From Anaerolineales bacterium (GTDB lineage Bacteria > Chloroflexota > Anaerolineae > Anaerolineales > UBA4823), in contig DAOUET010000001.1 of the NCBI GenBank assembly GCA_034430155.1, positions 342 through 64,341 on the forward strand: a DNA stretch of 64,000 bases, written 5' to 3'. The position numbers and the translations under genes are program-made. The notes under the pieces were generated by a model. It worked only from the letters and a program-made list of their open reading frames with translations, did not search any database and was not told where the DNA came from. Below are positions 28,095-45,665 of this stretch, piece after piece; within the stretch, counting starts at the first letter, position 1; every line of letters begins with the position of its first letter.

Positions 28095-30869
28095 TTATCT
28101 CGAAACTGCTAGCTTAACTAAGTTCCCCTGATCATCGAGGGTAATACGGGCAAAGTGTTGGTGCAGGTGAAATATTTCCGTTTGAGCAGCACTCAGCGTA
28201 TCAGGGTCTGACTGGTCGATGGCTGAGGCTCCTCTTACGGGCACTTGGATTTGTTTGCTCAAGGTAATCACGCTGCGGTTGGGTTTGCGAAGAGGTAGAG
28301 ATTTCGCGCCAAATTGGGATGTCGGGCAATTGTGATCGCCACCTTTACAACCGGCATGCTCCTGACTGCATAGTATCTTGGCGTCGGTCATGCCAGGCAG
28401 ATATTGTTCCACCAGCTGTTTGATCTGACCTAATTTCTCGTCGGACAAGGTGGATGGAGATTGGAACGAGTGATTTTCGCCCTCTACACGATCGCAAATC
28501 GTTCGGATGCGAGCTGGTCGGTGTGTGGAGCGGTAAACTTGGTTTGATCGAACGTCATTTTCCTTGGTTTGGACAAGAGGGTCGCCATAAAGGACAAAAG
28601 AAATCAAGGTCTTTTGATCTTCTCCGTCTAAATATCCCTGGCGACGGAGCATTTCGCGAGCTGTATAGATTTTAGCGCGCCTGAGAGCTTCACCAGCCGG
28701 CAGGGCTTCCCGCAAATATTTCCAAAATGTCTGACCAAGCAGGTCAGCGGCGATGAGAGGAGAGCTGATGGAGCCATAAGACGTGCAGGTCGACCCGACC
28801 ACGACTTGTGCTCCGGAGGAAAGGAATTTTAGCGAAAGGGCTTTTTCGACGGTTTTGTTCAAGATATGGGCACCATAGCAGGCTTCTGTAAAGATTACCT
28901 GAGGCGCACGCCCACCATTGATCACGTCTCGAGGGCGTAAAGCCACTGGATAATCCGGGTCGTTTCCTGGTTCGGTTGGGTCGCGTTGACCATACCATTC
29001 ACTGGCATCCTGCAAGCCATGTAGGTTGAAGTAACCCAGGCGGGCTGATGGTAAAAGATCGTTCTTCTGCGTCCGACCGGGGTGACCGGTGACCTGTACG
29101 GGGGGAGACACCAACATAGCATGGGGTTGCCCGATAGGGCGGAAGACTGAAAGCGAAGCCCGCCGCCAGACTGCCGCGGTATATCCCCAACTAGGACGAG
29201 AGCGGCGAATTGATAATCCTGAAAAAAGCTTCTTCAACCATCGAATCAGCCAGGATCTTGGAGGTAAGATGTTTTGATGGCGAGAGGTGATATCACGCAG
29301 CATACGCAGGAGGGGTTCAGCGTTATACTGGGCGCCACCTGGCAAGCGACCGACAGTCCATTCGGGGATGAAATAATTTTCATCCGAGGATGCGTAGGGG
29401 TTGTCTGAAGGCACATCGATATCAGCATCGTCAACCGGATTCGGCAAGTGATGGAACGGCACCACCTCCGGACCGCCAACGATCAACACAGCCCCAATCA
29501 TTTCACCCTTTCTCGCCAGGGCAGCGTCCAGATCAGCCAAGGTCAGTTTGAGCTCCCAGGCATCATCCGGACGGGCAGGCACCAGTCCAAAAGCACCTGT
29601 GCTGCGGGGGTCATCCGCGTATAGGAGAATTGCTCTCCAATCCGGCCGGGTATCTATGGTTTTTACCAATCGTTTCATCTCGGATTCAATAGCCGTGAAT
29701 TGCCGTCCATAGTGGGTTTCCAAGCCTTTTTTGGTCGTAAATAGCACATAAACCGGGAAACGTCCGTCGGAGTGAGCCAGATAGTTATGTTTTAGGCGAC
29801 CTGCCAGACGCTGCAGCTCCTTTTGAACTGAGCGCAATGATTTGGGAATCTTTGGAAGGGGAGGTGAAGGCCGGTGGGATCTCCGAAGAGACGGATGGCT
29901 GCCTCCTTCTGCGGTTTTGGCATTCATGCAGGTGACTTGCGGTTGCTGCCGTTTGGTTGGACGAGTAAGTTCACCAGCCGGGTCACTTTTTGCGATCACT
30001 TCATCTGTATTCGAACTTTCTGGTGTAGTTGAATCTGTATGGGTGGGAGCTTTTCTGCCAGCTGGGAGCTGGTTCCATCCCAAAACGGCAGCAACATCAG
30101 CGGGGATGGGTATTTCCCAAATGACCTTCAGATCAGACGGCCAGAGTCTAATGTACCGGTGATCTTGACCCCAAAGACGAGTGGACACCTGGGCGGTAAT
30201 ATCCAATGAGGCTGCCTGGTGTAAAAGAGCCACCGCTTTTTCTGACTCGCCACCTTCCAAGAGCGATTCTGCCAGTATCAATTTACAAACCAAACAACCA
30301 GGCCAGCGTTCGTGGTAAAGTTCTGCAAGATCCCTCAGGGCAAATCCGGGCAGGTTTCTCCGGGCACTTATCTGCAAGTGGGTAACGGCGATTATGGGGG
30401 TTATTTGTGCTTCGATCAAGGTTTGGTGAATATATTCTTCGGCTGTCTCCAAAATGCCATCTACAAGTGCCTTACGGGCGGCGTAGAGAGCACTAGCCCA
30501 GTAGGGTTTGGGTTCACCGGGATAAAGATTATCCCCTATGGCAAATAGTTGAGCTTTGGCGTCAGCGATGTTTGGTGAACCGGTCAGGTCATAAACTTGC
30601 AGAAGTAACTTTTGAGCTTCGATATCCTCTGGGTCAGCCAGTAAAAGCTCTTCTAAGACTTGTCTGGCTTGATTTACAGCGCCGGATTGGATCAGGGAGC
30701 GGGCGTGCAGCCCTCGAACTGGTAAATCTCCGGGATAATAAGCCAACCATGCTAATGCAACCCGACGGGCAAAGCGGTCAGCACCGACAGAAAGGGCAGT
30801 ACGCATCAAAACCAAGAAATCGGAACGAGAGACGTATTGTCTAGGAGAGATCATAGTAACAGCACTCAT
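28095..30869 (-). CDS. TPR-like N-terminal domain + clan-CD cysteine peptidase (gingipain C25 / caspase-like) protein
   Basis: 924 aa. The N-terminal ~230 aa are helical-repeat. The middle is a Pro/Ser/basic linker. The C-terminal half has the C25-type block VLIVGGPEVVPFH...DVPSDNPYAS...EWTVGRLPG. The catalytic-type His sits in YFNLHGL (codon 29019-29021) and the Cys in VIFTEACYG (codon 28878-28880). Its ATG overlaps the upstream gene's stop (ATGA). Confidence 0.65.
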   Translation of the reverse strand: MSAVTMISPRQYVSRSDFLVLMRTALSVGADRFARRVALAWLAYYPGDLPVRGLHARSLIQSGAVNQARQVLEELLLADPEDIEAQKLLLQVYDLTGSPNIADAKAQLFAIGDNLYPGEPKPYWASALYAARKALVDGILETAEEYIHQTLIEAQITPIIAVTHLQISARRNLPGFALRDLAELYHERWPGCLVCKLILAESLLEGGESEKAVALLHQAASLDITAQVSTRLWGQDHRYIRLWPSDLKVIWEIPIPADVAAVLGWNQLPAGRKAPTHTDSTTPESSNTDEVIAKSDPAGELTRPTKRQQPQVTCMNAKTAEGGSHPSLRRSHRPSPPLPKIPKSLRSVQKELQRLAGRLKHNYLAHSDGRFPVYVLFTTKKGLETHYGRQFTAIESEMKRLVKTIDTRPDWRAILLYADDPRSTGAFGLVPARPDDAWELKLTLADLDAALARKGEMIGAVLIVGGPEVVPFHHLPNPVDDADIDVPSDNPYASSDENYFIPEWTVGRLPGGAQYNAEPLLRMLRDITSRHQNILPPRSWLIRWLKKLFSGLSIRRSRPSWGYTAAVWRRASLSVFRPIGQPHAMLVSPPVQVTGHPGRTQKNDLLPSARLGYFNLHGLQDASEWYGQRDPTEPGNDPDYPVALRPRDVINGGRAPQVIFTEACYGAHILNKTVEKALSLKFLSSGAQVVVGSTCTSYGSISSPLIAADLLGQTFWKYLREALPAGEALRRAKIYTAREMLRRQGYLDGEDQKTLISFVLYGDPLVQTKENDVRSNQVYRSTHRPARIRTICDRVEGENHSFQSPSTLSDEKLGQIKQLVEQYLPGMTDAKILCSQEHAGCKGGDHNCPTSQFGAKSLPLRKPNRSVITLSKQIQVPVRGASAIDQSDPDTLSAAQTEIFHLHQHFARITLDDQGNLVKLAVSR

Positions 30870-33800
30870 GATGACACATTTATAGATATGGGGCGGCGGT
30901 TGTGGACTAGGTTGAGAGCAACAATAGCTCCTAGCTGGCGGTGGATTGTTAAATCCTCCGGAGCCAAGTCAGCGGCTCTACGCAGCATATCCTCAGCCGC
31001 CTGGTAGTCACGGATTTCTTTTAGCACAAGGCCAGATTGATAATAGGCACGCGGGTCTTTAGGGGCGATGGATATGGCCTGGTGGTAGGTATTCAGGGCG
31101 AGATCGTACTGGCGTCGTTCTTGATAGGCTGAGCCTAATTCGAGATAGGGCTTGAGGTCCTCGGTAAGCAGCTGGATGGCTTCGCTTAGGTGGTGTATGG
31201 CCTGGTCAAGTTGGCCAGATTGATGAAGCAAGCTACCTAATAAGTAATGGGCGTGTCCCTGAACATCGGGATCCAAGGCGCTGCTCTTGCCGTGCAAGGC
31301 TCGTTGAGCTGCATGGATTGCAGCCTCCCTTTGTCCGGCAGCCGCCAACGCAGTCGCTAATGGGGCGAGTATTGCTGGTTCATCCGGATAATCCTCGGCA
31401 AGATCTTGCAGGGCAGCAAAGGCAGCTTGAGAACCCTGACTTTTTTCAAGAAAATCTACCCGTTCGACCAACAATGGCAGTGGGTCGGAAGAATTCTTAA
31501 TGGCTTGTTCCACCGTTGAAAGGGCATCACTATAGCGTTCAAGACCATCCAGGGCACGAGCCAGATAGTGCAAAGCCTCGGGATCATCAGGTTTAATTTT
31601 AAGAGCCGCTTGAGCCCGCTGGTAAGCACCTCTGGGGTCAGCGGCCTTCAAAGCAACCTCACAACGAAGGAGGAGAGGATCTATCTTATCGGGCTCTAGG
31701 GAAATGGCGTTTTCGACAAGCAAAGCTGCCTTAGCGATATCGCCCTCGGCAATATAAACCTTAGCTAAGGCCATATAAATCTCATAATCCCGGGGCGCAA
31801 GTCGTTGAGCGCCTTCAAGTACCTGAAGTGCACGATCAAGATCACCAGCCTGCATAAGGGCTTCCCCCAAAATGAGATGATGGGTGACATTTTCAGGCTC
31901 CAATTCCGCGGCTTGTTCCAAGTGGGTGATGGCAGCGATGGGGTCACCGGTTTCAAGGTGCAATTGTGCTGCCTGGCTATGCCAACGCGGTTCGTTAGGC
32001 CAGAAGGATAAGGCTGTTTGAAGGGCTTTGAGCGCACTGGGATAATCACCAGTTCGGTGGGCTATGTCAGCATAAAGCACGTGATAAAGCGGTTGATTGG
32101 GTTCCTTATCGACAGCTGATTTGGATTTATTTTTCGCTTCCAGGATATCCTCCTGGCGGCGTCCACGGTAGCCTAATGAGAGGGCTTGCTGGATGAGGAC
32201 ATTGGCATTATATGAGTAAGGATTAGATCTATGAATATCGGTATCAATAGCAAGAGGCGTCTCTGCAAAATCACCTAATTCACGTGCTGTCGCGATACGA
32301 GCCGCGATATCATCGGGTTGAGATGAAAGCGCATCCAAGGCGTGGAGATTTTCTGGGTTAGGCTGAAAAACTGCTTCACCACGTGCTCTCCAACGCTGAA
32401 TCATCAAAGGGAGATTTACCTGTTCATACTGATGTGAAACTGGAAAGCACTCAGTAGCTTTACGCATGCATTCATCGAACGATTGATAAGTTCGTTGGGT
32501 TAATGAAACGGGTCCAGGTGCGTGTTTAATAACATCTGCTGTTTCGCATATGCGTTGATATTCGCCGCGTAAAACCAAGGTACGTGCTAGCTGGAGATGG
32601 CTATAGGGTTCTGAGGGAGCAAGGTTGATAGCTCTGCGCAGGAGGTATAAAGCCATATCCCACTGAGAGAGATCAAGGGCCGCGGCAGCCAGGGCATTTA
32701 GATCTTGAATTTCTGCATAAAGAGCAATTAATGATGAAGTCGGAGAATCGGTCTTGAATGAAATAGCGTGAGGTTCATCACCACTCTCGCTTTGGTCAAT
32801 GTTAAGGGACCCTGCGCTTGCCTCAAAATTCTCCAATCCCAATTTGAGGGTCTCAAAGGCCGTGGGGTTATCACCCCGTGGCTGGGTAAGCCGAGCTTGT
32901 AAAGCGATAATGCGAGGGTGGTTGGGATCAATGCCGATAGCTTTGGTCAGTGCCTCCGCAGCAGCAATCTCCTCACCCTCATCCAGAGCCAATTCAGCGG
33001 AAAGAGCGTAGTAAAGGAAAGCAGCAGTATCCTGTGGGTCATTATTCTCATCCGGTTTAGCATCTGCATAGGAATTTTGATCGCCTGATATGATTTCGCT
33101 CAAAAACCTGCGAGCTTTACCAGGCTGTAGTAAAGCGCGAGACAAGTCTCCAGCGAATGCGCGTGCCAGAAATGCATTCGAACTACCTGTCGTCTGGCTG
33201 CAAGAAGAAACCATTTGTTCAGCGTGAGAAAGGGCCTCAATAAGATCTCCACTAGACCTCAGGATCAGAGCAAGTCTGTGGTGTAAGGTGAGATCGCTGG
33301 GGTTATCCTGTAAGGCATGCTCCAAGGCAGCTTGAGCTGCCTGGGGACGATCCAAATAAAGCAGTAGATCAGCCTTAGAGATATGCAAAGCAGAATCTTG
33401 CGGATTGAGTGTAATGGCACGATTGATAGCTTCCAGGGCACTGTCGTGCTCTCCAGCGTACTTATAGGCAATCGAAAGATCATGAAGCATGCTCGCATCT
33501 GGCTCTGGAAGCAGATTAAGCGCCCGTTCCAGGCATGCGATCGCGCCAGAGGTATCGTTCAGGTTAAGCAATCCCTGGGCAGCTTGTGATAAATCTCCTG
33601 TTTGCGTATGTTCAGAAGAGAGCACTTGATGAAAAGCCTTACGGGCGGCGGTGGTGTCCCCGGTTTGAGTCTGGATGGAGGCCAGCTGCACCAATAAGCT
33701 CGTATCGGCAGGGTTGAGTTGTACGGCGCGACCGAGAGCCTGGAGCGCCTGTGAGTGAGCATCGAGCAGCAGGGCATGCTTCGCGAACCAGGAAAGCGTT

Positions 33801-36490
33801 TCAATATCATCGGGAGCCAGATGGATGGCGTTTTGGGCTGCTGCCAAGGCTTCCTTTGGCAATTGTAGTTTGAGGTACGCCTCAGCCATCAAGCGTTGAA
33901 TATCGGAGTTCTTTGGGTCCAGAAGGGCGCTTTCTTGCAAGATTGCGATGGCAACTTCAGGTTTTTCCAGAGCGAGGGCGGTGCGACCCAAGCCTGTAGC
34001 CAAACGGTTGTGCCAGAATGGGTCGTTGACCAAATCACTATCGAATACATTGAAATAGGATTGCAGAGCGGGGAGCAGCTCGCCATTAGCTGCCATGGCT
34101 TCAGCCAGATATGCTTGACCTAAGGTATTTTCAGGGGAAAGAGTCAAGGCATGACGGGCAGCTTGCAGAGCTTCTTCTGGATGGTCCCCGGTTTCTAAGA
34201 GTGCGAAGGCGTAATCCAGGTGCGGGAAGGGATCGGTCGGTTGTGTCTGCATTGCGACGACTAACGGGGAGATGGCTGCATTAGGTTCATTGAGAGCCAG
34301 TAAGGATTTTGCATAAGCGTGGGCGAGTCCTGGATATGCGGGATTGGTCTGGTAGGCTTCCGCTAAGATTTTGCGCGCCTCGTTCAAATGACCAAGTTCA
34401 TGCAAAGTCTCTCCTAATCGGGTTGCGATATGGGCAGATTGATCCTGATGAGCTAATAAGCTTCGCTCCCCAGGAAGGCCCTTGGCGTTCTTTTTAAGAA
34501 GCGGTGCTAGGGTATGAGGGCGCGAGGCTTGATAAGCCTGCTGTAAGCTGTGTAACGCCTGGGTTGGGGCATTCTGCCTTAGATATATTTCTGCAAGTTC
34601 CAGGTGAACAAGGGGATCGCTGGCGACGGCATGAGTAGCTGATCGCAGGGTGTCGATAGCTTTATCTAAATGACCTGCTCGCTGGTGGGCGTGCGCCAGT
34701 GCCAACCAAGGGGTAGATTGGTAAGGCGTGAATTGGGTAGCTTGTTGGAGATGGTCAAAGGCAGCTTGAGTGTCTCCAAGCGCTTCTAATGCCTCGCCAA
34801 AAGCTGTATGAGCTAAACCATCGGCTGGGCTTTCCCGCAGGATTTGCTGGCAAATGTCTGCAGCGCGCTGAGGTTCACCAGCATGTAAAGCACAGGTAGC
34901 CAGAGCATAATAATGATCATAAGAGGGCCAGGGTAAATCTGGGCTGGGGGTAAAACGCTTTTCCAGTAATTGGGTGCGTTCTTTGAGAGCGTCAGACCAA
35001 TTCCCATTCATCTCGAGGTATTCAACCAGGACAAAGCGCAAGTCGGTGCGCTGAGGGGAAAGCGTAACCGCCATTTGCGCAGCTTCTACGGCAGCGGAAA
35101 GATCCCTAGAGATACGAAACAAGTTTGCCATGGAAGCGTAAAGATCGGGGTCATTGGGCTGTGAGGCGACGGCAAAATGAGCAGCCTTAATAGCTTCATT
35201 AGGCAAACCCAGATCAGCGAATAAATTCATGAGATTGCGGCTAAGACCAGCAGCAACAGAAGCGGATAGCCGGCTGTGTTCCTCACCGATAGTCGTGAGG
35301 GGCTTAACCTGTACTTCTAAAATTTTTAAAGCATGTCGAGCGTTTTTACAAGCCTTATCGAAATTTCCTTGCGATACCGCCAACCGGGCGATGGCCAATA
35401 GATAGGCGGCATCATTAGCGCTTTCTTGATCTTCATCAATAGATGGAAATAAGGCAAGGGCATCGGCCGGTTGGTCTGCTTCCAGCAAGGCTAATATTAA
35501 ACCGGGGGGGGGAAAACTCTCAATGGTAGAACCATATCCATTGGTATGCGGGCGTAATTGCTTCCAGGTTGTCAGGGCTGTGTCAATATTCCCATTTCTG
35601 GCGATCGCCTCGGAGATCTGATCAGCGATCTGGGTCTGCAGCCGTTGGCTGGCTTGAAACGCCATAGTCTCCAAGGAGGCCGATTGTGATATCTGTCCGC
35701 CAATGAAGTTGAGATCAGCCTGAGAGATCAGGTGCACAATTTGATCTATTTGTTCAGCATAATTTCTGTATATCTGACGATTAGGTACGGTAGGTCCCTC
35801 ATTGAGGGTCGACAAGGCTATTGTTGAGGCCAATGCTGGATTGGCGCTTTGAAGGATCCTAAGAAATGTTACCAGATCGTTCAATCGTAAGTCACGCAAG
35901 GCTCCTTCAAGAATGTCTACCTGTTTAGAAGGAGGGATGGGGTTACTTAGAAGGGCATGGGTGGCAAGTTTGAGGTTAGTTATGGGAGCATTGGGATAGA
36001 TGAGGGAACGAAGCAGATCGCTTTGATCCTCAGCAAGACCCAATAAGCATGCCAATGGCGTGTACCAATTGGTCAGGTGAGATGCAAACAAGTCTGCGGT
36101 TAATCCATTCCAGGAACCTATCTTTTGGCGGCGTTCTGCCAAAGCGATGGCTAACAAACCTGCATGAGCCAGGGTAAGTTTATCTGGTAATCCAGAGGAA
36201 TCATCATTAAGGAGGGTCTGGTATGTGCGGACAGCGCGTTGGCGCAGTTTTTCTTCCAATTTATCAAATTCAAGGGGATACGGGTAATCCAGATCAATCA
36301 AGGCCAAAACCGCCGGGGACCATGCCTCAGGATTATTGCCGATTTTGCTAATCGCGCCCTTTCTTTTTTCTTCCTCTTGGAGGGTTTCCCAAATGAGGGC
36401 ATCCTGTCTCAAGGCCGCGATAACCCACGACCAGCTGGTTTCAGGTAAAAGTTCCTTTAATTCGACGACAAGGGATGGGGTCACATTCAT
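30866..36490 (-). CDS. Giant tetratricopeptide-repeat (TPR) protein
   Basis: ~1875 aa from ATG 36490; the ORF track extends to 36544 and would overlap the upstream gene. It contains dozens of 34-aa A/L/Y-rich repeats (...A...Y..AL.L.P....A...LG..), with no other recognisable domain. Confidence 0.8.
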   Translation of the reverse strand: MNVTPSLVVELKELLPETSWSWVIAALRQDALIWETLQEEEKRKGAISKIGNNPEAWSPAVLALIDLDYPYPLEFDKLEEKLRQRAVRTYQTLLNDDSSGLPDKLTLAHAGLLAIALAERRQKIGSWNGLTADLFASHLTNWYTPLACLLGLAEDQSDLLRSLIYPNAPITNLKLATHALLSNPIPPSKQVDILEGALRDLRLNDLVTFLRILQSANPALASTIALSTLNEGPTVPNRQIYRNYAEQIDQIVHLISQADLNFIGGQISQSASLETMAFQASQRLQTQIADQISEAIARNGNIDTALTTWKQLRPHTNGYGSTIESFPPPGLILALLEADQPADALALFPSIDEDQESANDAAYLLAIARLAVSQGNFDKACKNARHALKILEVQVKPLTTIGEEHSRLSASVAAGLSRNLMNLFADLGLPNEAIKAAHFAVASQPNDPDLYASMANLFRISRDLSAAVEAAQMAVTLSPQRTDLRFVLVEYLEMNGNWSDALKERTQLLEKRFTPSPDLPWPSYDHYYALATCALHAGEPQRAADICQQILRESPADGLAHTAFGEALEALGDTQAAFDHLQQATQFTPYQSTPWLALAHAHQRAGHLDKAIDTLRSATHAVASDPLVHLELAEIYLRQNAPTQALHSLQQAYQASRPHTLAPLLKKNAKGLPGERSLLAHQDQSAHIATRLGETLHELGHLNEARKILAEAYQTNPAYPGLAHAYAKSLLALNEPNAAISPLVVAMQTQPTDPFPHLDYAFALLETGDHPEEALQAARHALTLSPENTLGQAYLAEAMAANGELLPALQSYFNVFDSDLVNDPFWHNRLATGLGRTALALEKPEVAIAILQESALLDPKNSDIQRLMAEAYLKLQLPKEALAAAQNAIHLAPDDIETLSWFAKHALLLDAHSQALQALGRAVQLNPADTSLLVQLASIQTQTGDTTAARKAFHQVLSSEHTQTGDLSQAAQGLLNLNDTSGAIACLERALNLLPEPDASMLHDLSIAYKYAGEHDSALEAINRAITLNPQDSALHISKADLLLYLDRPQAAQAALEHALQDNPSDLTLHHRLALILRSSGDLIEALSHAEQMVSSCSQTTGSSNAFLARAFAGDLSRALLQPGKARRFLSEIISGDQNSYADAKPDENNDPQDTAAFLYYALSAELALDEGEEIAAAEALTKAIGIDPNHPRIIALQARLTQPRGDNPTAFETLKLGLENFEASAGSLNIDQSESGDEPHAISFKTDSPTSSLIALYAEIQDLNALAAAALDLSQWDMALYLLRRAINLAPSEPYSHLQLARTLVLRGEYQRICETADVIKHAPGPVSLTQRTYQSFDECMRKATECFPVSHQYEQVNLPLMIQRWRARGEAVFQPNPENLHALDALSSQPDDIAARIATARELGDFAETPLAIDTDIHRSNPYSYNANVLIQQALSLGYRGRRQEDILEAKNKSKSAVDKEPNQPLYHVLYADIAHRTGDYPSALKALQTALSFWPNEPRWHSQAAQLHLETGDPIAAITHLEQAAELEPENVTHHLILGEALMQAGDLDRALQVLEGAQRLAPRDYEIYMALAKVYIAEGDIAKAALLVENAISLEPDKIDPLLLRCEVALKAADPRGAYQRAQAALKIKPDDPEALHYLARALDGLERYSDALSTVEQAIKNSSDPLPLLVERVDFLEKSQGSQAAFAALQDLAEDYPDEPAILAPLATALAAAGQREAAIHAAQRALHGKSSALDPDVQGHAHYLLGSLLHQSGQLDQAIHHLSEAIQLLTEDLKPYLELGSAYQERRQYDLALNTYHQAISIAPKDPRAYYQSGLVLKEIRDYQAAEDMLRRAADLAPEDLTIHRQLGAIVALNLVHNRRPISINVSS

Positions 36491-36512
36491 TTTTTCACCA
36501 ATTAGGAATTCA

Positions 36513-38220: not shown

Positions 38221-39375
38221 CTAATTTTGGCGAGCCCGGCGACGTAAGAAAGCAGGTATGTCTAGGTTGGTGGATGTGCTTGCCATGACAGGAAGAGGGC
38301 TGGCTTCAACAGCCTGTACCTCAGTTTGAGACCGTGGCCGGGAAACGACTGCATGACGTGGCATCACTTCGTCTAAGGCTGTGCCACCCAAACCTGTGAC
38401 CACAAGAATAACCTGAGCACGGTCGCCCATACATGGATCCTGGATAAAGCCCATGACAATTTCTGTATCAGATTTAGCCTGAGCCTGAAGGTGATTTAGA
38501 GCATCACTCACTTCTAACAAGCTGAGGTCATCTCCCCCGGTAAAGTTGGCGATTATCCCGGCAGCGTTTTCTATGGAAACGGCTTCTAAGAGCGGGTGGT
38601 TTAGCGCTTGTTCGACAGCTTGCAGGGCTTTGCCGTCGCCGTGTCCTTGACCGATGGACATCAACGCTCCCCCGCCCAGTTGCATGAGCCGGCGAATATG
38701 GGCAAAATCAACATTGATCAAGCCAGGCTCGGTAATCAGTTCGGTGACGCCCTGAACAGCCTGCCGTAGAACATCGTCAGCCACGCGAAAAGCTACTTCT
38801 AGAGATAGATCAGTGGGTGCAACGCAAAGCAGGCGATCGTTGGGAATGGAAATGAGTGTGTCGGTTTGAGGTTGCAAGCGCTGTAGACCTTCGCTGGCGT
38901 TCCGTTGGCGACGGCCCATTTCAAAAGAGAAGGGGGTGGTGACAATCGCTATTGTGACGGCGCCTAAACTGCGGGCGATTTTGGCTGCTACCGGTATAGC
39001 GCCAGTGCCTGTACCGCCTCCCATCCCGGCAGTGAGAAAAACCATGCTGGCACCAGCTAATGCAGCTGCCAGTTCTCGGTGGCTTTCCTCGGCTGCTTTA
39101 TATCCGATTTCCGGATTACCGCCTGCCCCCAAACCCCGGGTGACATGTTGACCGAGCTGGATCTTATAGGGGGCGATGCTTGTCTGAAGAGCCTGGTAAT
39201 CGGTATTGGCTGCAATAAATTCAACACCCTGCATACCTAGTTCGATCATACGGTTGACAGCGTTGCAACCACCACCACCCAATCCGATCACCTTCAGGAC
39301 GGGTTGTGGGGTTGATAATGGGGACGAAGAATGTATGTCTCTCATAATTTCCTTCTCTGGATAATGGCGTATCAT
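38221..39375 (-). CDS. ftsZ: Cell division GTPase FtsZ
   Basis: IKVIGLGGGGCNAVNRMI and the tubulin signature GGGTGTGA are present, with the C-terminal peptide DIPAFLRRR. The in-frame ATG at 39345 (MRDIHSS), preceded by AAGGA, is the more likely start. Confidence 0.95.
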   Translation of the reverse strand: MIRHYPEKEIMRDIHSSSPLSTPQPVLKVIGLGGGGCNAVNRMIELGMQGVEFIAANTDYQALQTSIAPYKIQLGQHVTRGLGAGGNPEIGYKAAEESHRELAAALAGASMVFLTAGMGGGTGTGAIPVAAKIARSLGAVTIAIVTTPFSFEMGRRQRNASEGLQRLQPQTDTLISIPNDRLLCVAPTDLSLEVAFRVADDVLRQAVQGVTELITEPGLINVDFAHIRRLMQLGGGALMSIGQGHGDGKALQAVEQALNHPLLEAVSIENAAGIIANFTGGDDLSLLEVSDALNHLQAQAKSDTEIVMGFIQDPCMGDRAQVILVVTGLGGTALDEVMPRHAVVSRPRSQTEVQAVEASPLPVMASTSTNLDIPAFLRRRARQN

Positions 39376-39424
39376 CGGGATATATGCTTCCGGAGTTTCA
39401 AACAGTTTGCTTCAAGATTCCTGT

Positions 39425-39440
39425 TGCAATTCTCATGCCA
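39425..39440 (-). promoter_or_regulatory. Sigma-54 (-24/-12) promoter candidate upstream of ftsZ
   Basis: The minus strand reads AG-TGGCAT-GAGAA-TTGCA-AC. This fits YTGGCACGrNNNTTGCW with a single C-to-T change. The -24 element overlaps the last codons and stop of the upstream gene. It lies 50-80 nt upstream of the candidate ftsZ starts. Confidence 0.6.
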
Positions 39441-40791
39441 CTAAATCAAGGTGTTCAACATCACAACCAGCAGATTCCAGGTTTTTCTTTAATTTTTCTG
39501 AAAATGCTTCTTTTTTCCCGGCAATCGTGACGAGCTTGGCCAGAGCAGCTTCTTCAGTTGAGAAACCAATGGTAGGTTTGTATTTTTTCACATAAGGCTG
39601 GATGGCTTGAAGGTACCAATCGGGGATACCCCACTCGTATGAGGGTAGCAAGAGATAATGGGAAATAGGGTGTTGGGAATGCACTTTTTCATTTGAAATC
39701 AAGTCCTTTGAGTCGCCGGGAGACTGAGGGCGCCTCAGCGAAGATCTCTCTTGGGATTTAGGGGCAACCTGATGGCCGCTGAACCATTGGCGTAAGGTCG
39801 AGACGATAGGGAGCGTGCTGCCATCTGGTTTGTACCAGGCATCTGGCAGATCCGGGCTATGATGATCGGCGGTGATCAACCAAAAATTACCAGCCAGGAC
39901 TTCCTGGGGAACGGTTTCCAGTGGGTCTGCCATGTAAGGCTCGAGCGTGTCTCCGGCCATACGCCTGGCGATGGTTAGGGTCCGCAGGGTCCGGGCAGTA
40001 TCATCGATTGAGTCTGGAGCGCTGTTACCAGGAGAACGCTGGTGGCTGCCGACTCCCAACAAAAGGATCCCCGTTGATCTACCGGTTACAGCTCGAATGA
40101 TGGCAAGGTACCAGTCAAAGATGCGAAAGCCACGCTGATCCTCGCTCCTGGGCGGTGTGAAATATGGCCGGGCACCTGGCCAGCTTTCGGGTCCACCATA
40201 TCCCCAATTTAAAGGTCGTTCACCAGCGCGAGCGTAAGCTGCCAAAACTAGAACCTCAAGCAAATCATGTAAGCCGCGCCGCTTTAATGCCTGGAAAGCT
40301 GCCCGTAAGAAAGCGGTATCCCAATAATCGCCTCCGGGTTCCAATGGTGGAAAAATAGGGATCAATCCAGCTTGCCTGGCTGATTCGGCAAGCGGTACGA
40401 AATGGTCGAGGAATCTCTCGACCAGCTCATTCTGTACCCATCCCCCCATAGGCCAGGCTGTGCGGGTATTCGGGCAATCGAACAGGATAACATAATGGAT
40501 GCCCCAACGTGCGTAGGTGGAAAATAACAACGCCAAATCAGTTTGTGAATGAGGGATTCCCAAAGGCAGATGGAAGTGCAATACCGGTTCGATGTGCGCC
40601 CGGGCTAATCCGCGTAGAAATTGTTCAGGGATGGCGCGATCCGTAGGCGCAACCAGAATTAACCAATTGGCTCCCAGGGCGCGTAATTCAGGCAACCAGG
40701 CGCGCAAATCGCTTTGCCGGAAGTGCTCAGTATCAGGGAAATAATGAAATCCCAAACGGGTGTTATTTTTTGGAGTAGGGAAATTGAGCAT
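39433..40791 (-). CDS. Hypothetical protein, possibly TIM-barrel glycoside-hydrolase-like
   Basis: 452 aa with no signal peptide. The alternating beta/alpha pattern with WVQNELV and FPPLEPGG resembles clan GH-A acid/base and nucleophile positions, but the similarity is weak. The C-terminal ~80 aa form a separate small domain. Confidence 0.6.
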   Translation of the reverse strand: MLNFPTPKNNTRLGFHYFPDTEHFRQSDLRAWLPELRALGANWLILVAPTDRAIPEQFLRGLARAHIEPVLHFHLPLGIPHSQTDLALLFSTYARWGIHYVILFDCPNTRTAWPMGGWVQNELVERFLDHFVPLAESARQAGLIPIFPPLEPGGDYWDTAFLRAAFQALKRRGLHDLLEVLVLAAYARAGERPLNWGYGGPESWPGARPYFTPPRSEDQRGFRIFDWYLAIIRAVTGRSTGILLLGVGSHQRSPGNSAPDSIDDTARTLRTLTIARRMAGDTLEPYMADPLETVPQEVLAGNFWLITADHHSPDLPDAWYKPDGSTLPIVSTLRQWFSGHQVAPKSQERSSLRRPQSPGDSKDLISNEKVHSQHPISHYLLLPSYEWGIPDWYLQAIQPYVKKYKPTIGFSTEEAALAKLVTIAGKKEAFSEKLKKNLESAGCDVEHLDLVA

Positions 40792-40814
40792 TCATTCTCT
40801 CCTGGCAGTAATGG

Positions 40815-40830
40815 TGCAAGAGGTATGCCA
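40815..40830 (-). promoter_or_regulatory. Sigma-54 (-24/-12) promoter candidate upstream of the 452-aa gene
   Basis: The minus strand reads CC-TGGCAT-ACCTC-TTGCA-CC, in the 71-nt gap after the activator gene. It is followed by a GGAGAG RBS and the ATG at 40791. Confidence 0.55.
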
Positions 40831-40862
40831 GGAAAGATGAAGCAAGGTAGCCGGTTGGATTT

Positions 40863-42038
40863 TTAAGAATCAGGGTGGATGATTTCCCTGGGAAGATGGG
40901 GTAAATCGATGGCCGGATCATCGCAGAACAGCATGGCTCTTTCGATGATGTTTTGAAGTTCGCGTATGTTGCCAGGCCAATCATGATTCATCAAAGCCTG
41001 CATTGCGCGGGGGGTTACCTCGGAGATATTTAACCCCATCCTGGGGTTATTTTTTCTCAAGAACAGGCCGATAAGTTCGGGGATATCCTGTTTGCGTTCC
41101 CGTAGAGGTGGCAGGTGTAGATCGACCACTTTCAGCCTATAGTACAGGTCTTCCCGGAATTCAGCGGCTTTGATTAATGAAGGCAAGTCCCTGTTTGAGG
41201 CAGCGATGATTTGCACATCGACGCGCAGCATGTTAGTGCCACCAACCCGGCGAATGGCACCCTCCTCGAGAGCGCGCAGAAGTTTGGCTTGCATTTCTAC
41301 TGGCATAGACGAGATCTCATCGAGGAAAAGGATGCCCTCGTCGGCGATTTCCATCAATCCGGGCTTGCGTTTATCCGCGCTGGTGAATGCACCTGCCTCA
41401 TGCCCAAATAGCTCTGTTTCGAGCATAGTGCTCTGGAGGGCGGCGCAATTCACGGCAATAAACGGTTTTCCAGCCCGAGTTCCCATCTGGTGAAGGGCAT
41501 GGGCTAATACTTCTTTGCCCGTGCCGGTCTCACCGGTAATTAACACAGAGACTGATGCAGTGGCAGCCCGTTGTGCCTGGTTTAGCAAGGATTGCATCGC
41601 CTGGCTGTTACCCACCACAAAATCGAGATGCTTATATTGGGTTTCACGCAGATGGTTTAGCTCACGCTGCATGGAAACCTGTTCTACGGCTCTTTCGATG
41701 GATTTTTCTAATACGTTCAATTGAATCGGTTTCTGTAGAAAATCAAGGGCACCATTCTTCATGGCATCAACCGCCATGTCGATATCGCCATAAGCGGTGA
41801 TCAAAATGATGGGAGGTCGAACAGGGAGATGGGTAGTCTCTTCCAGCAGGGAAGGGCCATAACCATCTGGGAGCAATACATCCAGCAGAATAATATCCGC
41901 TTCACCACGGCGGACATAATTCCGGGCGTCTTCTAAGGTGGCGACTCCATGGACCTCGTAGCCTCGAGAAACTAGAAAGGTGGAGATGTTCTCGCGAGCG
42001 TTATCTTCATCATCAACAATCAAAATAGTTGCGGTCAT
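40863..42038 (-). CDS. Sigma-54-dependent response regulator (REC + AAA+), lacking a C-terminal HTH domain
   Basis: 391 aa. REC domain (ILIVDDE ... IILLDVLLPDG). AAA+ domain with Walker A GETGTGKE, ELFGHEAGAFTSA (a GAFTGA variant) and sensor II GNIRELQN. The protein ends ~25 aa later with no Fis-type HTH. Confidence 0.9.
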   Translation of the reverse strand: MTATILIVDDEDNARENISTFLVSRGYEVHGVATLEDARNYVRRGEADIILLDVLLPDGYGPSLLEETTHLPVRPPIILITAYGDIDMAVDAMKNGALDFLQKPIQLNVLEKSIERAVEQVSMQRELNHLRETQYKHLDFVVGNSQAMQSLLNQAQRAATASVSVLITGETGTGKEVLAHALHQMGTRAGKPFIAVNCAALQSTMLETELFGHEAGAFTSADKRKPGLMEIADEGILFLDEISSMPVEMQAKLLRALEEGAIRRVGGTNMLRVDVQIIAASNRDLPSLIKAAEFREDLYYRLKVVDLHLPPLRERKQDIPELIGLFLRKNNPRMGLNISEVTPRAMQALMNHDWPGNIRELQNIIERAMLFCDDPAIDLPHLPREIIHPDS

Positions 42039-42046
42039 AATCTTCT

Positions 42047-43999
42047 CTAGGTCTCGTTTCGTTCAGCGGCCGGGAAGCGGGCTTGAAAGACCGTTCCTCC
42101 AGGTACGCTGGCAACTTCGATAGTACCCTTGTGAGCAGTGATAATGCGTTTGGCTATCGCCAGACCCAGACCGGTGCCTTCACTATTTGTAGTGAAGAAG
42201 GGCTCAAAAATGTGCTCGCGAATGTCTTCCGGGATACCTGGACCGTTATCCGCTACACTGACCTCGATATGCCGGCGTTCTCCTGGCCGGGTGATCGAAC
42301 GCAAGTGCACGGTGAGCATACCACCTTTTTCTCCCATAGCCTGGATAGCGTTACTGATCAGATTAGTAAAAACCTGTTCCAAGGCGCGAGAATCGCCGAT
42401 TACGAGGGGATTTTTGGCGGTGACGGTAAGTTTATGCTCTATGTTTACGCGTGCCATCCTGGGACGCCAACGTTCTAGTAAGCGGTGAACCAACAAACCG
42501 AGATCAACTTTATCCATCCTGGATTGGGATGGATGCGAGAAGGATAAAACGGATTGCATCAAATGAGCCAGGCGTTCGCAATCGGTTCCTAAACGAGCGA
42601 TGATCTCTTGATTGGGATCATCTTCGGGTAAATTGTAAGCGATGAGTTGAAGGCCAGTGCTGATATTATTGATCGGGTTTCGCACTTCGTGGGCAAAAAT
42701 TGCGGTGATTTCGCCTAGAAGGGCGCGTTGTTCTAACTGTTGGTTACGAACCTGATATTGTTCGCGCTCGCTTAAATCTCGGAGAAGGAGGATGGCGCGA
42801 TGAAATTTGTCTTTGTAAAAGACTGGCAGAATGCGGATGAGGGCCAGAAAAGCGCCCCCATCTCGACGATGTATCCGGACGTTACCTAAATTGTGGGTGG
42901 GTATCCCCTGTTGAGCTGCCTGGAGTGCAGGTATCAGGTTTTCCGCGCCAATGATGACGTTTTCGATCGGTTGACCGTTTACTTCGCGGGTGGCATATCC
43001 AAGAATCCACTCAGCAGAAGGATTCATTTCTATTATTTTTTGATCGGGCCCAATGATGATGACACCTTCCCGCACAGATTCCTTGATGGTATCGGCGAGT
43101 GTAAGACCGATTGATTGTATTTCAATTTGTTCGAACAAGTTGGACGTCAGGGATTTTTGCTGGACGATAGCCATGATTGCGGCTGCTATTATTTGAAGGA
43201 CCGGTAGAATGTTGGTAGTCGGACTTGATGCGGGGTCAGCGATGACGATCAATCCCGAAAATTTTCCAGGTTGGCCGAGGGGCGCTGAAGCCAGGTAGGT
43301 GAATTTTGCCGCTCGAGCTGCTCGCAGTAAACCGCAGGTGGCGCGTTTACCCGGGATCCAGAGGCGGGGATCCAAAATTTGGCTGACATCTGAAGGGGGG
43401 ATGCGTTCAGGCAACTCCGCAGCAGTCCCCCAGTTAGCGATTCGTTTAAGACCCGGTGAGCGAGGGTCGACAACATAGATCGCCAGGATGGCGGCGCCTG
43501 AAAGCGTGTGTCCAGTTTGCAGGGCGGATTGGATGGCCTGTCGAAAGTCGCTTTCCTGGGTGGATAGAATTAATTTGTAGAGAAGGTCTAAAAGTCTGTT
43601 ATGTCGTTGTTTTTCAGCTTGTTGTAAGCGATGAAGCTGCTCTTGCTCCAGGACGACCAGAGCGATCGAGCTTGGGGAGTTGAGGCGGTTTAAAGTTAAG
43701 AACACCTCAACTTTTGTGCCTCGGCGGGCATTAATACTGGTTGTGAAACTTGTGATCGCATTTCCTATGCCTTGAGGGTGATCCATCACCCCCAAAGCTG
43801 GTATCAAGGAGTCCAGGTTGAGATCTATCAATTCGCTCCGTGTAAAAGAAGTCAGTTCGGTAGCTTGGGCATTCGCAAGCAGTATCTCGTTTCCCTGCAA
43901 ATCGACGAGCAAAGCTGCCTGAGGGAAAACGTCGAGAAAACTCTCAATCTCAGTAAGGGACAGCTGCCGACGCCGTAAAAATGACAATGAGGGGAGCAT
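42047..43999 (-). CDS. Cytoplasmic PAS/GAF/PAS sensor histidine kinase
   Basis: 650 aa with no TM segments. H-box [12 protein letters not shown], plus N, G1 and G2 boxes ([26 protein letters not shown]). The gaps to both neighbours are 8-11 nt. Confidence 0.9.
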
Positions 44000-44010
44000 G
44001 TGTGAAAAAT

Positions 44011-45438
44011 CTATGCGGGTTTAGGGGATTCCTTAACCTGACGAAGATGGGATGGCAGGATACCTTCCATGGATCTGTATTTTGCTACCGTACGTCTGGC
44101 GACGTGAAAACCCTGCTCGTTGAGCAGACTGACAATTTCATTGTCGCTTAGAGGTTTTTTTTCGTTGTCGATGATCTCTTTGATCACGCTGCGTATATGG
44201 AGACTGCGATCGAAGAATTTTGAGAGCGGGATAATGTGTCCATTGGGCAGCTGTGCAGCTTTGCTGGAAACTGCTCGTGAAATGGTTGATTCGTGAACAT
44301 CCAGCTCCTCCGCCAATTTGGCCCGGGTGTAAGGACGAAGGTAACAATCACCATGAAGGATAAATTCACGTTGTAATTTGGTGATCCGGCGCATCAAGCG
44401 TACCATAGTATTGGCGCGTTGTTGAATACACTTTACCAGCAAATCTGCACGTTCCAAATCCGATTTCCACTGTTCGACTTTATCGGCAGGAGCTTGCCCG
44501 AGCGCCTGGCGGAAGAGTGGGTTGACTTGAAGCAACCCCAGGAAGGGTGAAACGATTTCCACGACCAGGGGGGCATTAGCGTTGCCCTGGAGTAAAGAGA
44601 TGATCACATCCGGATTATTGTAAACTCTCGGGCTTTCGGCGGTCCCTTGACGGATATCGCCCCAATAAGCACGCCCCGGATATGGATTCAAGTTGTCGCT
44701 GATAAAACGGGCAATCTCCCTAACCTTACGGCTGGATATCCCTAGTAAACGACCTAGTTCGGTATATTGGTGACGGCTGAGTAATTCAAGCCCTGATTTG
44801 ATGGCTTCATCTGCCAGTGGAGGCACGGGGAAATTTTCTGCCAGCAATTCCAATTGTACCAATAAGGCTTCCCGGGGGGAGGAGGAGCCAACACCTACAG
44901 GATCCGCCCGCTGGATAATGTTCAGGATTTTCTCAACCTTCCCAAGCGAAACGTGGTGGTATCGGGCGACTTCCAGAGGGGTGGTGTCCAGCAAACCATC
45001 CTCATCTAAATTGGTAAGCAGATGAGCAGCCAGGCGGCGGTCATCTGGATCAAGATCTGGGGCGATCTGGCGTAATACAAAAGTAGGTAGTTCCTCTTTT
45101 GCAGGTGTAAGGTTTTCCCCGGAGAACTCTTCAGCCGAAGATCTTCTGGATACATAAAAATCCTGGCGAGGAGAAACGAATATGATCGGTTCTTCCATGG
45201 AAAGTGATTTTGGTGTGCTGCAGCGTGGGCAGGGTTGCGAACCGATCAGAGGGCGATGGCAGGTGGGACAACGACGCTCCTCTCTTAACTCTAATGCTGG
45301 ATTTTGTGACAGTTCTGTTTCGATTTTTTGATTTAGTTCAACCGCAGTAAGTTCGAGAAGCGACATGGTTTGAGCCAGGTGCGCGGTGGTGAGCGGACGT
45401 AATGTAGTTGCTGGACGGAGGATCTGAACTTGTAACAT
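44011..45438 (-). CDS. rpoN: RNA polymerase sigma-54 factor with a Zn-ribbon insertion
   Basis: 475 aa. Region I (LTTAHLAQTMSLLELTAVELNQKIETELSQNPALE) and a C-terminal HTH plus RpoN box (ARRTVAKYR). CPTC-x9-CPRC occurs at residues 57-73. Confidence 0.9.
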   Translation of the reverse strand: MLQVQILRPATTLRPLTTAHLAQTMSLLELTAVELNQKIETELSQNPALELREERRCPTCHRPLIGSQPCPRCSTPKSLSMEEPIIFVSPRQDFYVSRRSSAEEFSGENLTPAKEELPTFVLRQIAPDLDPDDRRLAAHLLTNLDEDGLLDTTPLEVARYHHVSLGKVEKILNIIQRADPVGVGSSSPREALLVQLELLAENFPVPPLADEAIKSGLELLSRHQYTELGRLLGISSRKVREIARFISDNLNPYPGRAYWGDIRQGTAESPRVYNNPDVIISLLQGNANAPLVVEIVSPFLGLLQVNPLFRQALGQAPADKVEQWKSDLERADLLVKCIQQRANTMVRLMRRITKLQREFILHGDCYLRPYTRAKLAEELDVHESTISRAVSSKAAQLPNGHIIPLSKFFDRSLHIRSVIKEIIDNEKKPLSDNEIVSLLNEQGFHVARRTVAKYRSMEGILPSHLRQVKESPKPA

Positions 45439-45540
45439 AATGATGAAATCCTTTGATGCTGCTTATCAAAATGAAGGAATCTTAAAATTGAGAATTAAAC
45501 TCATGGAATTTTCTTCTCAGTAGAGACATATACACTCGTT

Positions 45541-45556
45541 GCAAGTTCCGTGCCAG
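45541..45556 (-). promoter_or_regulatory. Sigma-54 (-24/-12) promoter upstream of rpoN
   Basis: The minus strand reads C-TGGCAC-GGAAC-TTGCA-A, a perfect match to TGGCACG-N4-TTGCW. It lies ~100 nt upstream of the rpoN ATG. Confidence 0.7.
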
Positions 45557-45636
45557 CTGTTATTGAGAACCACCCCCTGATTAGATGTTTATAGCCCTGC
45601 TGACTAACCAGGGGGTGTAGTAAATCTTCTCATTTC

Positions 45637-45665
45637 AATTATCGCGAAAAATCCGAGCGAGTCAA
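45637..45665 (-). promoter_or_regulatory. Sigma-70-type promoter upstream of the rpoN sigma-54 promoter
   Basis: The minus strand reads TTGACT (45665-45660), a 17-nt spacer, then ATAATT (45642-45637). Confidence 0.45.

Follow-up and report, generated by a model that had tools for sequence, protein, structure and literature searches.

A putative sigma-54 circuit with ftsZ among its predicted targets in the Anaerolineae

Background

The gene ftsZ is the central division gene and is normally constitutively available. A sigma-54 promoter has no basal activity; it is silent without ATP hydrolysis by an activator, and the control that it provides is switch-like. The locus described here raises the question of whether the two can go together, i.e., whether ftsZ is transcribed from a sigma-54 promoter in the Anaerolineae (Chloroflexota). 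The stretch analysed is a 64 kb segment of an Anaerolineae chromosome, referred to below as the window. It carries rpoN (the sigma-54 gene), genes for a histidine kinase and a sigma-54 activator, a gene for a 452-residue protein (p452), ftsZ, and a series of genes downstream of ftsZ in one co-directional run, with sigma-54-type elements in front of rpoN, p452 and ftsZ. A comparison with related genomes suggests that the locus is probably a self-contained sigma-54 circuit, the output of which is ftsZ together with division-associated partner genes. Since the sigma-54 promoters are conserved across relatives, in about 100 genomes, the transcription of division genes in the Anaerolineae appears to be gated by an ATP-dependent activator.

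Sigma-54 has been reported in only "some Chloroflexi", and cell-division genes show no over-representation in the vicinity of sigma-54, of its activators or of its promoters (PMC3162934). A 2025 survey of sigma-54 regulons mentions neither Chloroflexota nor ftsZ as a target (PMC12316311). No description of sigma-54 control of ftsZ was found in the literature searched, in keeping with the initial annotation of this stretch, which had not recognised the arrangement as one already described.

Results

Sigma-54 elements in the window

A search of the window for the pattern TGGCAYNNNNNTTGCA (TGGCAY-N5-TTGCA) gives exactly three matches, each of them on the minus strand. Dinucleotide-preserving shuffles gave a mean of 0.04 matches, and none of 100 shuffles reached three. 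The three perfect elements are located on the coding strand at the three largest junctions of the gene run, 5' of rpoN, p452 and ftsZ. Each has its GG and GC doublets exactly 10 nucleotides (nt) apart within TGGCAC-N5-TTGCW. They are listed here with a fourth, weaker element.

45540–45555, minus strand: P(rpoN), predicted sigma-54 promoter cTGGCACGGAACTTGCAa, 24.2 bits, with GG at 45553–45554 and GC at 45541–45542
40815–40830, minus strand: P(p452), predicted sigma-54 promoter cTGGCATACCTCTTGCAc, 26.8 bits, followed by the Shine-Dalgarno sequence AGGAGA and an ATG at 40791
39425–39440, minus strand: P(ftsZ), predicted sigma-54 promoter gTGGCATGAGAATTGCAa, 21.6 bits, overlapping the p452 stop codon TGA at 39433–39435
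46263–46278, minus strand: weaker sigma-54-type element TGGCCCCAATCTTGCA, one mismatch, 14.0 bits, 83 nt upstream of orf166

Transcription from P(rpoN) is predicted to start near 45529. The initial annotation had reported three perfect motifs at the three largest junctions; the matches and their strand are as it described, and the rpoN site lies one base lower than it had stated, at 45540–45555. Its claim that the window holds no other full match was borne out by the pattern search. A weight matrix built from related sites and run on both strands found only these three (21.6–26.8 bits) and the element at 46263–46278 (14.0 bits). When one mismatch was allowed there were three additional sites, of which only 46263–46278 is upstream of a co-oriented gene, orf166 (45695–46195). 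This fourth site was missing from the earlier list of motifs. The orf166 orthologues have a comparable TGGC[CT]-N6-CTTGCA site 67–89 nt upstream in 5–6 of 6 loci, and orf166 is likely a minor member of the regulon. No sigma-54 site was found by the matrix scan before s106, the giant TPR gene or p924 in the window.

Organization of the gene run

The 11 open reading frames (ORFs) follow each other on the minus strand from 45438 down to 28095, as the ORF map confirms. They are given below with the hairpin at the end of the run.

44011–45438, minus strand: rpoN, sigma-54, 475 amino acids (aa), with three sigma-54 domains; region II carries a CxxC-N13-CxxC insertion
42047–43999, minus strand: cytoplasmic PAS-(GAF-like)-PAS histidine kinase, 650 aa, with PAS at 305–413, HisKA and HATPase_c
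40863–42038, minus strand: REC-AAA+ sigma-54 activator, 391 aa, with a GAFTSA loop and without a DNA-binding domain (domain scan)
39433–40791, minus strand: p452, cytoplasmic, a TIM barrel with a C-terminal alpha/beta domain (AlphaFold), adjoining ftsZ
38221–39375, minus strand: ftsZ (TIGR00065), with a likely start at the ATG at 39345, which is preceded by GAAGGA
37928–38173, minus strand: s81, small soluble protein with a conserved ...KI(I/L)KITTSR C-terminus, present in 61 of 80 loci
37682–37906, minus strand: s74, small protein with a C-terminal membrane anchor; genes of similar size are at the same place in L085 and L086
36844–37671, minus strand: m275, bitopic membrane protein with an extracytoplasmic domain of ~220 aa, found in 45 loci
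36513–36833, minus strand: s106, protein with two transmembrane (TM) segments (topology prediction and relatives), heading the s106-TPR-peptidase unit
30866–36544, minus strand: giant cytoplasmic tetratricopeptide repeat (TPR) protein; longest ORF 1892 aa, likely start near 36493, orthologue in 31 loci
28095–30869, minus strand: p924, N-terminal TPR and a putative clan-CD (C25/CHAT-like) peptidase domain, with a 4-nt overlap with the TPR gene
28039–28076, minus strand: 16-bp hairpin just 3' of the p924 stop, the strongest stem in the region, with no T tract

Domain scans agree with the earlier assignments of rpoN, the PAS/GAF kinase, the REC-AAA+ activator without a DNA-binding domain, ftsZ and the TPR protein. 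From rpoN to p452 the gaps are 11, 8 and 71 nt. The p452-ftsZ gap is 57 nt, or 87 nt if ftsZ starts at 39345, and the gaps after ftsZ are 47, 21, 10 and 10 nt, followed by overlaps of 32 and 4 nt. Because the gaps between ftsZ and p924 do not exceed 47 nt, no sigma-54 site is found there, and the sole strong hairpin comes after p924, co-transcription from P(ftsZ) is the simplest reading. The hairpin at 28039–28076 is likely the end of this long transcription unit. There is no ftsA or ftsQ adjoining ftsZ within the window.

Conservation of the promoters in related genomes

A scan of one genome per species, with flanks of +/-10 kb, returned 377 loci, of which 80 (L001–L080, 1.41 Mb) were kept and compared with the window proteins by tblastn. 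The genes p452 and ftsZ are adjacent in 76 of the 80, and in the remaining four the contig ends before ftsZ. The pair is typically followed by s81 (61/80 loci), and p452-ftsZ-s81 is a class-wide trio. The full supercluster is found in ~30 loci in the order rpoN-kinase-activator-(lipoproteins, other strand)-p452-ftsZ-s81-(s74)-m275-s106-TPR-p924, and at least three arrangements exist, of which it is one.

Searched on both strands, the 1.41 Mb contains 145 strict matches, and for 140 of these the gene that follows immediately is rpoN, p452, ftsZ or, in one case, s106. The five off-target matches compare with ~2.7 expected by chance. Loci without a strict match have near-matches that keep GG-N10-GC, e.g., CGGCAC...TTGCA and TGGTAT...TTGCA. 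At a matrix threshold of 13 bits or more, sites are assigned to p452 (76), ftsZ (76, plus 3 at contig ends), rpoN (24), s106 (4) and orf166 (3), and about 7–10 hits are unassigned vs ~7 expected from shuffles. Altogether, a site is present upstream of ftsZ in 76/76 loci, of p452 in 79/80, and of rpoN in all 25 loci that have upstream DNA; a P(rpoN)-type site is also found in L081–L083. L068, from Leptolinea strain HRD-7, has both the p452 and the ftsZ element. Comparable full matches scattered at random, which the initial annotation had named as a way in which its proposal could fail, are not what the related DNA contains; off-target matches occur at the chance rate, and the motifs and gene order are conserved in syntenic loci. 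As negative controls, the 200 nt upstream of s81 (61 loci), m275 (45 loci) and the TPR gene (31 loci) never gave a best score above 2.5 bits.

The surroundings of the elements are also informative. Apart from the p452 element, the intergenic DNA there shows no conservation, so that the element is the sole conserved block, and no conserved block was found at P(p452) in the 30 nt preceding its -24 element. The distance from the -12 C to the start codon has a median of 33–38 nt across loci, which implies short leaders that begin just before the Shine-Dalgarno sequence. The order of element, ~12 nt, Shine-Dalgarno sequence and ATG is kept across loci.

The p452 and ftsZ elements are kept also where rpoN is not nearby. 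In such minimal-type loci p452 has a divergent gene upstream, and the conserved elements of promoter type in front of p452 and ftsZ are limited to the sigma-54 ones. A search for rpoN in genomes of the minimal p452-ftsZ-s81 type gave no such gene among the best 120 matches to sigma-54, each of 60% identity or more; these come from cassette-linked contexts, and the five contexts examined were all of the cassette type. Of the 52 loci with sufficient flanks on both sides, 19 combine the rpoN-kinase-activator cassette upstream with the TPR unit downstream, 31 lack both, two carry just the TPR unit, and the cassette by itself is seen in none (counts uncorrected for phylogeny).

A separate observation concerns Leptolinea-type loci (L016, L031, L033, L041, L057, L078 and others), where the gene divergent from p452 is ~60–90 nt upstream of it and begins MILVTGG..., an N-terminus read by eye as Rossmann-type (epimerase-like). 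This gene has a TATAAT box ~7 nt before its ATG and, again by eye, resembles a leaderless transcript.

The ftsZ element within p452 codons

In 77 of 79 loci the final codons of p452 contain the ftsZ element, which there most often encodes D-G-T-S-I-A. Coding constraint on p452 was considered as the cause of the motif conservation and was ruled out by a test of codon choice. Glycine at the element is GGC in 70/77 cases (91%) vs a background of 33% elsewhere in the same genes, isoleucine is ATT in 66/66 (100%) vs 36%, alanine is GCA in 76/77 (99%) vs 22%, and serine is AGT in 41/41 (100%) vs 9%. The wobble base of the spacer threonine is variable, and the peptide is variable too (DGTSIA, DGMNIA, DGTEIA and others). 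The synonymous codons are tied to the letters of the promoter even as the amino acids change, and thus selection acts on the DNA. The window provides a further example. Here the p452 frame stops in the promoter spacer (TGA at 39433–39435) instead of reading through. The element is intact although the frame ends inside it, which excludes an explanation at the protein level. P(ftsZ) is a natural example of a promoter encoded in the last codons of the upstream gene, in which the dual constraint is measurable.

The rpoN-kinase-activator cassette

The rpoN product has three domains above cut-off, PF00309 Sigma54_AID (28.9 bits, cut-off 23.8), PF04963 Sigma54_CBD (102.5 bits) and PF04552 Sigma54_DBD (120.3 bits), and it carries the RpoN box as ARRTVAKYR. 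It also has a zinc-ribbon-like insertion CPTCHRPLIGSQPCPRC of the form CxxC-N11-13-CxxC in region II, at residues ~57–73 (45220–45270 in the window). This insertion is kept in 26 of 26 rpoN orthologues (L001–L076), and we know of no such CxxC insertion in characterised sigma-54 proteins.

The kinase sequence displays no convincing membrane segment, and its orthologues have additional weak PAS/GAF matches. The activator matches PF00158 Sigma54_activat at 228.3 bits, with GETGTGKE and DEISS as Walker A and B motifs. Its receiver domain matches PF00072 at 86.2 bits, with the phospho-acceptor Asp in ...IILLDV.... The protein ends at residue 391, 3 aa past the AAA lid, and a domain scan found no helix-turn-helix. 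All 32 activator orthologues likewise end 0–12 aa after the AAA lid without a DNA-binding domain, which implies that this absence is ancestral to the group. The initial annotation had treated rpoN, kinase and activator as a module, and they do form a unit in every context retrieved, including those of the five sigma-54 homologues examined independently.

The s106-TPR-peptidase unit

In some relatives the s106-TPR-peptidase unit is directly after the cassette, with neither p452 nor ftsZ between (L083 and the metagenome contigs L134, L135 and L136). In these four the gap between activator and s106 has a sigma-54 site of 20.9–25.8 bits. A site of its own is also present before s106 in L130, L162, L117, L014, L023, L037 and L063, where a gap divides s106 from the gene before it. 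In loci that, like the window, have s106 abutting m275, s106 has no sigma-54 site of its own. The occurrence of such a site in the 11 loci named here, when the unit is not packed behind ftsZ, agrees with the earlier proposal that the TPR/peptidase pair is a target, and membership of the unit in the sigma-54 regulon is supported by these sequence comparisons.

The giant TPR protein has no predicted signal peptide or TM segment. The earlier description of p924 as a TPR and clan-CD protein is in line with the family data, although the window copy alone gives TPR matches only, with no match to a clan-CD profile even at E <= 10. Among 34 p924 homologues (~50% identity), 17 match Peptidase_C25 (PF01364, best 3.9e-14) and 11 match CHAT, and precomputed PF01364 matches are on record for nearly all p924 homologues. 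The motifs FNLHG (H617, G618) and SEACYG (C664) are invariant in 34 sequences. The putative clan-CD assignment is based on these family-level Pfam matches and the invariant His and Cys. In the AlphaFold model of p924 the predicted local distance difference test score (pLDDT) is below 50 over most of 549–706; strands at 611–614 and 658–661 are placed, at low confidence, just before the His and Cys. A Foldseek search with this model matched only TPR proteins, and comparison of the p452 and p924 sequences with solved structures gave nothing relevant. No signal peptide is predicted for p924.

FtsZ, p452 and the small proteins

The ftsZ product passes the TIGR00065 equivalog model with 383.9 bits (cut-off 295.2) and has the GGGTGTG signature and a C-terminal anchor-binding peptide, LDIPAFLRRR.

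Sequence searches of Pfam, NCBIfam and the PDB gave no match for the p452 protein. Its homologues at ~50% identity number more than 1500; all are hypothetical, and their named sources are Anaerolineae/Chloroflexota. The earlier suggestion of a TIM-barrel-like fold is in agreement with the AlphaFold model (pLDDT 83.8), which displays a (beta/alpha)8 barrel of eight strand-helix units at residues 13–340 and an alpha/beta domain at 376–448. With this model Foldseek found only generic TIM barrels (aldolase, GH42, GH5) at a query TM-score of at most 0.44, and no family was assigned. A profile of the p452 family searched against 1.84 billion representatives gave 1008 matches at E <= 1e-3; the best 150 of these are all close (E <= 1e-93), and among them there is no bridge to a named family. 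Membership in glycoside hydrolase clan A was considered and rejected, as FDRPN follows strand 4, GAG follows strand 7 and no conserved Glu was seen by eye. From the many invariant Trp, Asp and Glu residues, a sugar-acting enzyme is a guess.

The s81, s74, s106, orf166, p503 and p561 products gave nothing in Pfam and NCBIfam scans. A resemblance of m275 to a degenerate LytR-CpsA-Psr (LCP) protein was considered and dropped, as neither m275 nor five homologues has a Pfam match.

The region upstream of rpoN

Three further features are located between rpoN and the tRNA gene upstream of it.

45695–46195, minus strand: orf166, predicted lipoprotein, with a signal peptide and LSSAC lipobox; an orthologue is upstream of rpoN in 7 loci
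45638–45665, minus strand: sigma-70-like promoter TTGACT-16-GATAAT, with 10 of 12 consensus matches, the best-scoring site in the region (consensus match only)
45571–45617, minus strand: hairpin with a 14-bp stem, -27.4 kcal/mol, z = -3.4, with 0 of 200 shuffles as stable

The sigma-70-like site is 85–110 nt upstream of the rpoN sigma-54 site and is a candidate for the basal promoter of the rpoN operon. Sigma-70-like matches within the locus number 30 vs 18.6 +/- 4.2 in shuffles. The hairpin at 45571–45617 is placed between the sigma-70-like and the sigma-54 promoters of rpoN and could be an orf166 terminator or an attenuator. The block CCAGGGGG of the hairpin region is also found upstream of the rpoN site in L001 and L007. 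In six relatives (L014, L020, L027, L034, L070 and L076) the rpoN sigma-54 element is, as read by eye, inside [TA]TGGCA-N17-TA[TC]AAT. In these six a sigma-70-type -35 would overlap the -24, which suggests competition between two holoenzymes; this overlapping arrangement of sigma-70 and sigma-54 elements (TTGGCA-N17-TATAAT) is not present at rpoN of the window.

Other genes in the window

Downstream of the run, and convergent to p924, are two paralogous lipoprotein genes.

24522–26033 and 26220–27905, plus strand: p503 and p561, paralogous lipoproteins of 503 and 561 aa

Homologues of p503/p561 are located between activator and p452, on the opposite strand, in ~20 relatives, and just past p924 in others. 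The matrix scan found no sigma-54 site for p503/p561, though their homologues accompany the cluster in relatives. Upstream of orf166, all on the minus strand, are genes for tRNA-Arg(CCG) (46569–46642), a DUF2344 protein (46678–47313) and a B12-binding radical-SAM protein (47350–49521); the order radical-SAM/DUF2344/orf166/rpoN is found again in L006 and L030.

The rest of the window is ordinary chromosome, with ruvCA, ATP synthase, mreB, obg, the primary sigma-70 and an H+-pyrophosphatase. The mreB gene (11860–12873, plus strand) comes immediately after the ATP synthase epsilon gene, and beside it, on the opposite strand, is a gene for a Rex-like redox repressor. The sigma-70 gene at 60921–62138 (plus strand), ~15 kb from rpoN, encodes a primary-type factor that has regions 1.1 to 4. 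A fusion of a receiver domain and a ParA/MinD-type ATPase (18461–19714, minus strand) adjoins an HD-GYP-like (HD_5) protein (19958–21586, plus strand), and this pair may be a further signalling input to cell organisation.

Discussion

Proposed circuit

The following steps are proposed. The cytoplasmic PAS/GAF kinase would sense an intracellular signal and phosphorylate the receiver domain of the activator. The activator would then oligomerise and, in the manner of CtcC and FlgR, remodel from solution any sigma-54 closed complex parked at a -24/-12 promoter. As it has no DNA-binding domain, it is expected to act on any sigma-54 holoenzyme in this way. Closed complexes are predicted at P(rpoN), P(p452) and P(ftsZ), and additionally at P(s106) and P(orf166) in loci that have them, the orf166 lipoprotein gene being the weakest target unit. 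Transcription from P(rpoN) would produce rpoN, kinase and activator and so presumably exert feedback on the module. Transcription from P(ftsZ) probably runs through s81, s74, m275, s106, the TPR gene and the peptidase gene to the hairpin at 28039–28076. The sigma-70-like promoter upstream of rpoN probably supplies basal sigma-54. The output would be a coordinated burst of sigma-54, kinase, activator, p452, FtsZ, small envelope proteins and the TPR/peptidase pair. The circuit set out in the initial annotation is supported, but the arrangement is not confined to this locus: class-wide promoters precede p452 and ftsZ, and the supercluster is one of several arrangements.

Several points weigh against the proposed circuit. 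In the window and in 19 orthologues the activator loop reads GAFTSA where GAFTGA is canonical; 11 orthologues have GAFTGA. About 31 loci carry the promoters without rpoN or the activator within 10 kb, and in these ~31 minimal-type genomes sigma-54 is inferred from the conserved promoters only. The co-occurrence of cassette and TPR unit may reflect shared ancestry. Read-through from the sigma-70-like promoter at 45665–45638 could give ftsZ expression that is independent of sigma-54.

The last of these points leads to a different view of the same promoters, in which they are real but give a conditional boost, and the housekeeping supply of ftsZ comes from sigma-70, through read-through of the rpoN operon or internal promoters. 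Under a particular condition sigma-54 would then raise the output of ftsZ, p452 and the TPR/peptidase unit, comparable to sigma-H acting at the additional ftsAZ promoter of Bacillus subtilis. The sigma-70-like promoter upstream of rpoN is a good one and no strong terminator is found between there and ftsZ, the rpoN site of some relatives overlaps TTGGCA-N17-TATAAT (by eye), and essential genes are seldom wholly dependent on an activator-gated sigma factor. However, minimal-type loci, with their divergent upstream gene, have only sigma-54 elements conserved before p452 and ftsZ, and the sigma-70-like matches in the locus are close to the shuffle expectation. Moreover, each of the 76 loci retains the ftsZ element despite its cost in codon choice, which argues for a major role. 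A conditional role is regarded as somewhat unlikely. That the cassette activator would serve only rpoN and the s106-TPR-peptidase unit, with another enhancer-binding protein driving P(p452) and P(ftsZ), is improbable. Such a division of labour would fit the ~31 loci that have the p452 and ftsZ promoters and no cassette within 10 kb, and also the loci where the cassette is joined to the TPR unit with no ftsZ between. Yet an activator without a DNA-binding domain would have no means to choose among sigma-54 promoters, to judge from CtcC and FlgR (PMC3162934), the 1.41 Mb of L001–L080 yielded no second Sigma54_activat-like protein at more than 36% identity, and the cassette is immediately upstream of p452-ftsZ in most of the loci that bear it. 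We infer that the cassette activator, rather than another, serves these promoters.

The nature of the gene and of the element can also be questioned. A combination of TPR and clan-CD/CHAT domains is typical of the NTP-dependent conflict systems of multicellular prokaryotes, in which FtsZ/tubulin domains are rare effectors (PMC7159879); the Anaerolineae are filamentous, and ftsZ is beside neither ftsA nor ftsQ in the window. From this one could argue that ftsZ is a specialised paralogue and the cluster a developmental or conflict/programmed-death module. This is quite improbable given that the protein passes the FtsZ equivalog model and has both GGGTGTG and the anchor-binding peptide, that all Anaerolineae loci found have p452-ftsZ-s81, whether or not they carry the TPR unit, and that domain scans of the cluster revealed no STAND or other conflict-type NTPase sensor. 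The remaining alternative is that the 16-mer is not a promoter at all, and represents a coding constraint at the C-terminal end of p452, a site bound by a different DNA-binding protein, or a sigma-54 roadblock or repressor dock. Its location inside coding sequence in 77 of 79 loci would be in line with this, and intragenic, non-productive sigma-54 sites are known in enterobacteria. It is nevertheless highly improbable: synonymous positions are fixed while amino acids vary, the window element is intact though the p452 frame ends within it, the same element is the sole conserved block in the non-coding DNA before p452 and rpoN, the geometry of element, Shine-Dalgarno sequence and ATG is conserved, and a sigma-54 gene is physically linked.

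A self-contained sigma-54 circuit acting on ftsZ is therefore preferred. A much stronger version of it can be formulated, in which sigma-54 would be a dedicated division factor with a regulon of little beyond rpoN, p452, the ftsZ operon and the TPR/peptidase pair, and ftsZ would have no sigma-70 promoter. Septation of these multicellular filaments would then be all-or-none, gated by signal and ATP through one kinase and one enhancer-independent activator with positive feedback, and the peptidase would act in a separase-like manner on the division machinery. It is distinctly unlikely that all of these parts hold together.

Comparison with known systems

CtcC of Chlamydia and FlgR of Helicobacter are type Ic activators, in which no DNA-binding domain is present (PMC3162934). 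The Chlamydia CtcB/CtcC pair is similar to the one described here in that a PAS-type kinase is combined with a REC-AAA+ activator of this type (type Ic, PMC3162934), and in having a small regulon for a cell-state transition, not for nitrogen or flagella. It differs in that here rpoN is in one cassette with the pair and has its own predicted sigma-54 promoter, the predicted targets are ftsZ, the TIM-barrel protein and the TPR/peptidase pair, and the phylum is the monoderm-type Chloroflexota. Chlamydia is not known to have ftsZ. FlgS/FlgR of Helicobacter and Campylobacter are likewise a cytoplasmic kinase and an activator that needs no enhancer binding (PMC3162934), and because FlgR is enhancer-free, one activator serves all sigma-54 promoters of the cell. 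Their targets, unlike those proposed here, are flagellar, rpoN is not autoregulated from a sigma-54 site, and there is no reported link to ftsZ transcription. In one report (PMC3228812), flagellar regulators are linked to division-site placement. The proposed mechanism therefore resembles CtcB/CtcC and FlgS/FlgR by analogy, and the target set appears to be new.

Alternative or developmental ftsZ promoters are well known, e.g., the sigma-H-dependent P2 of ftsAZ in B. subtilis, ftsZ2p in Streptomyces and the gearbox promoter of ftsQAZ in E. coli, and they tie septation to cell state. They also place ftsZ under a non-housekeeping regulator, but theirs use factors of the sigma-70 family that open promoters unaided, whereas the promoter described here would be sigma-54-dependent, activator-gated and class-wide. 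In Caulobacter, FlbD and TacA tie sigma-54 transcription to the cell cycle and morphogenesis in a similar way; there, in contrast, ftsZ is under CtrA and DnaA and is not known to be under sigma-54, and FlbD and TacA have DNA-binding domains. The p924 protein, with a TPR scaffold and a putative His-Gly...Ala-Cys clan-CD core, is comparable to the C25 gingipains, CHAT proteins and separase. It differs from gingipains in having no predicted signal peptide and from CHAT conflict systems in having no associated NTPase sensor.

Conclusion

If true, conserved sigma-54 control of ftsZ across the class would represent an unusually strict transcriptional gate on division, because sigma-54 promoters lack basal activity and depend on ATP hydrolysis by an activator. 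The compact rpoN-kinase-activator cassette, with its defined promoters, is amenable to reconstitution. The locus also nominates p452, s81, and the giant TPR protein with its putative clan-CD peptidase as division-linked proteins. For the slow-growing filamentous Anaerolineae, which are abundant in digesters, sludge and sediments, the circuit would provide a testable handle on the timing of septation.

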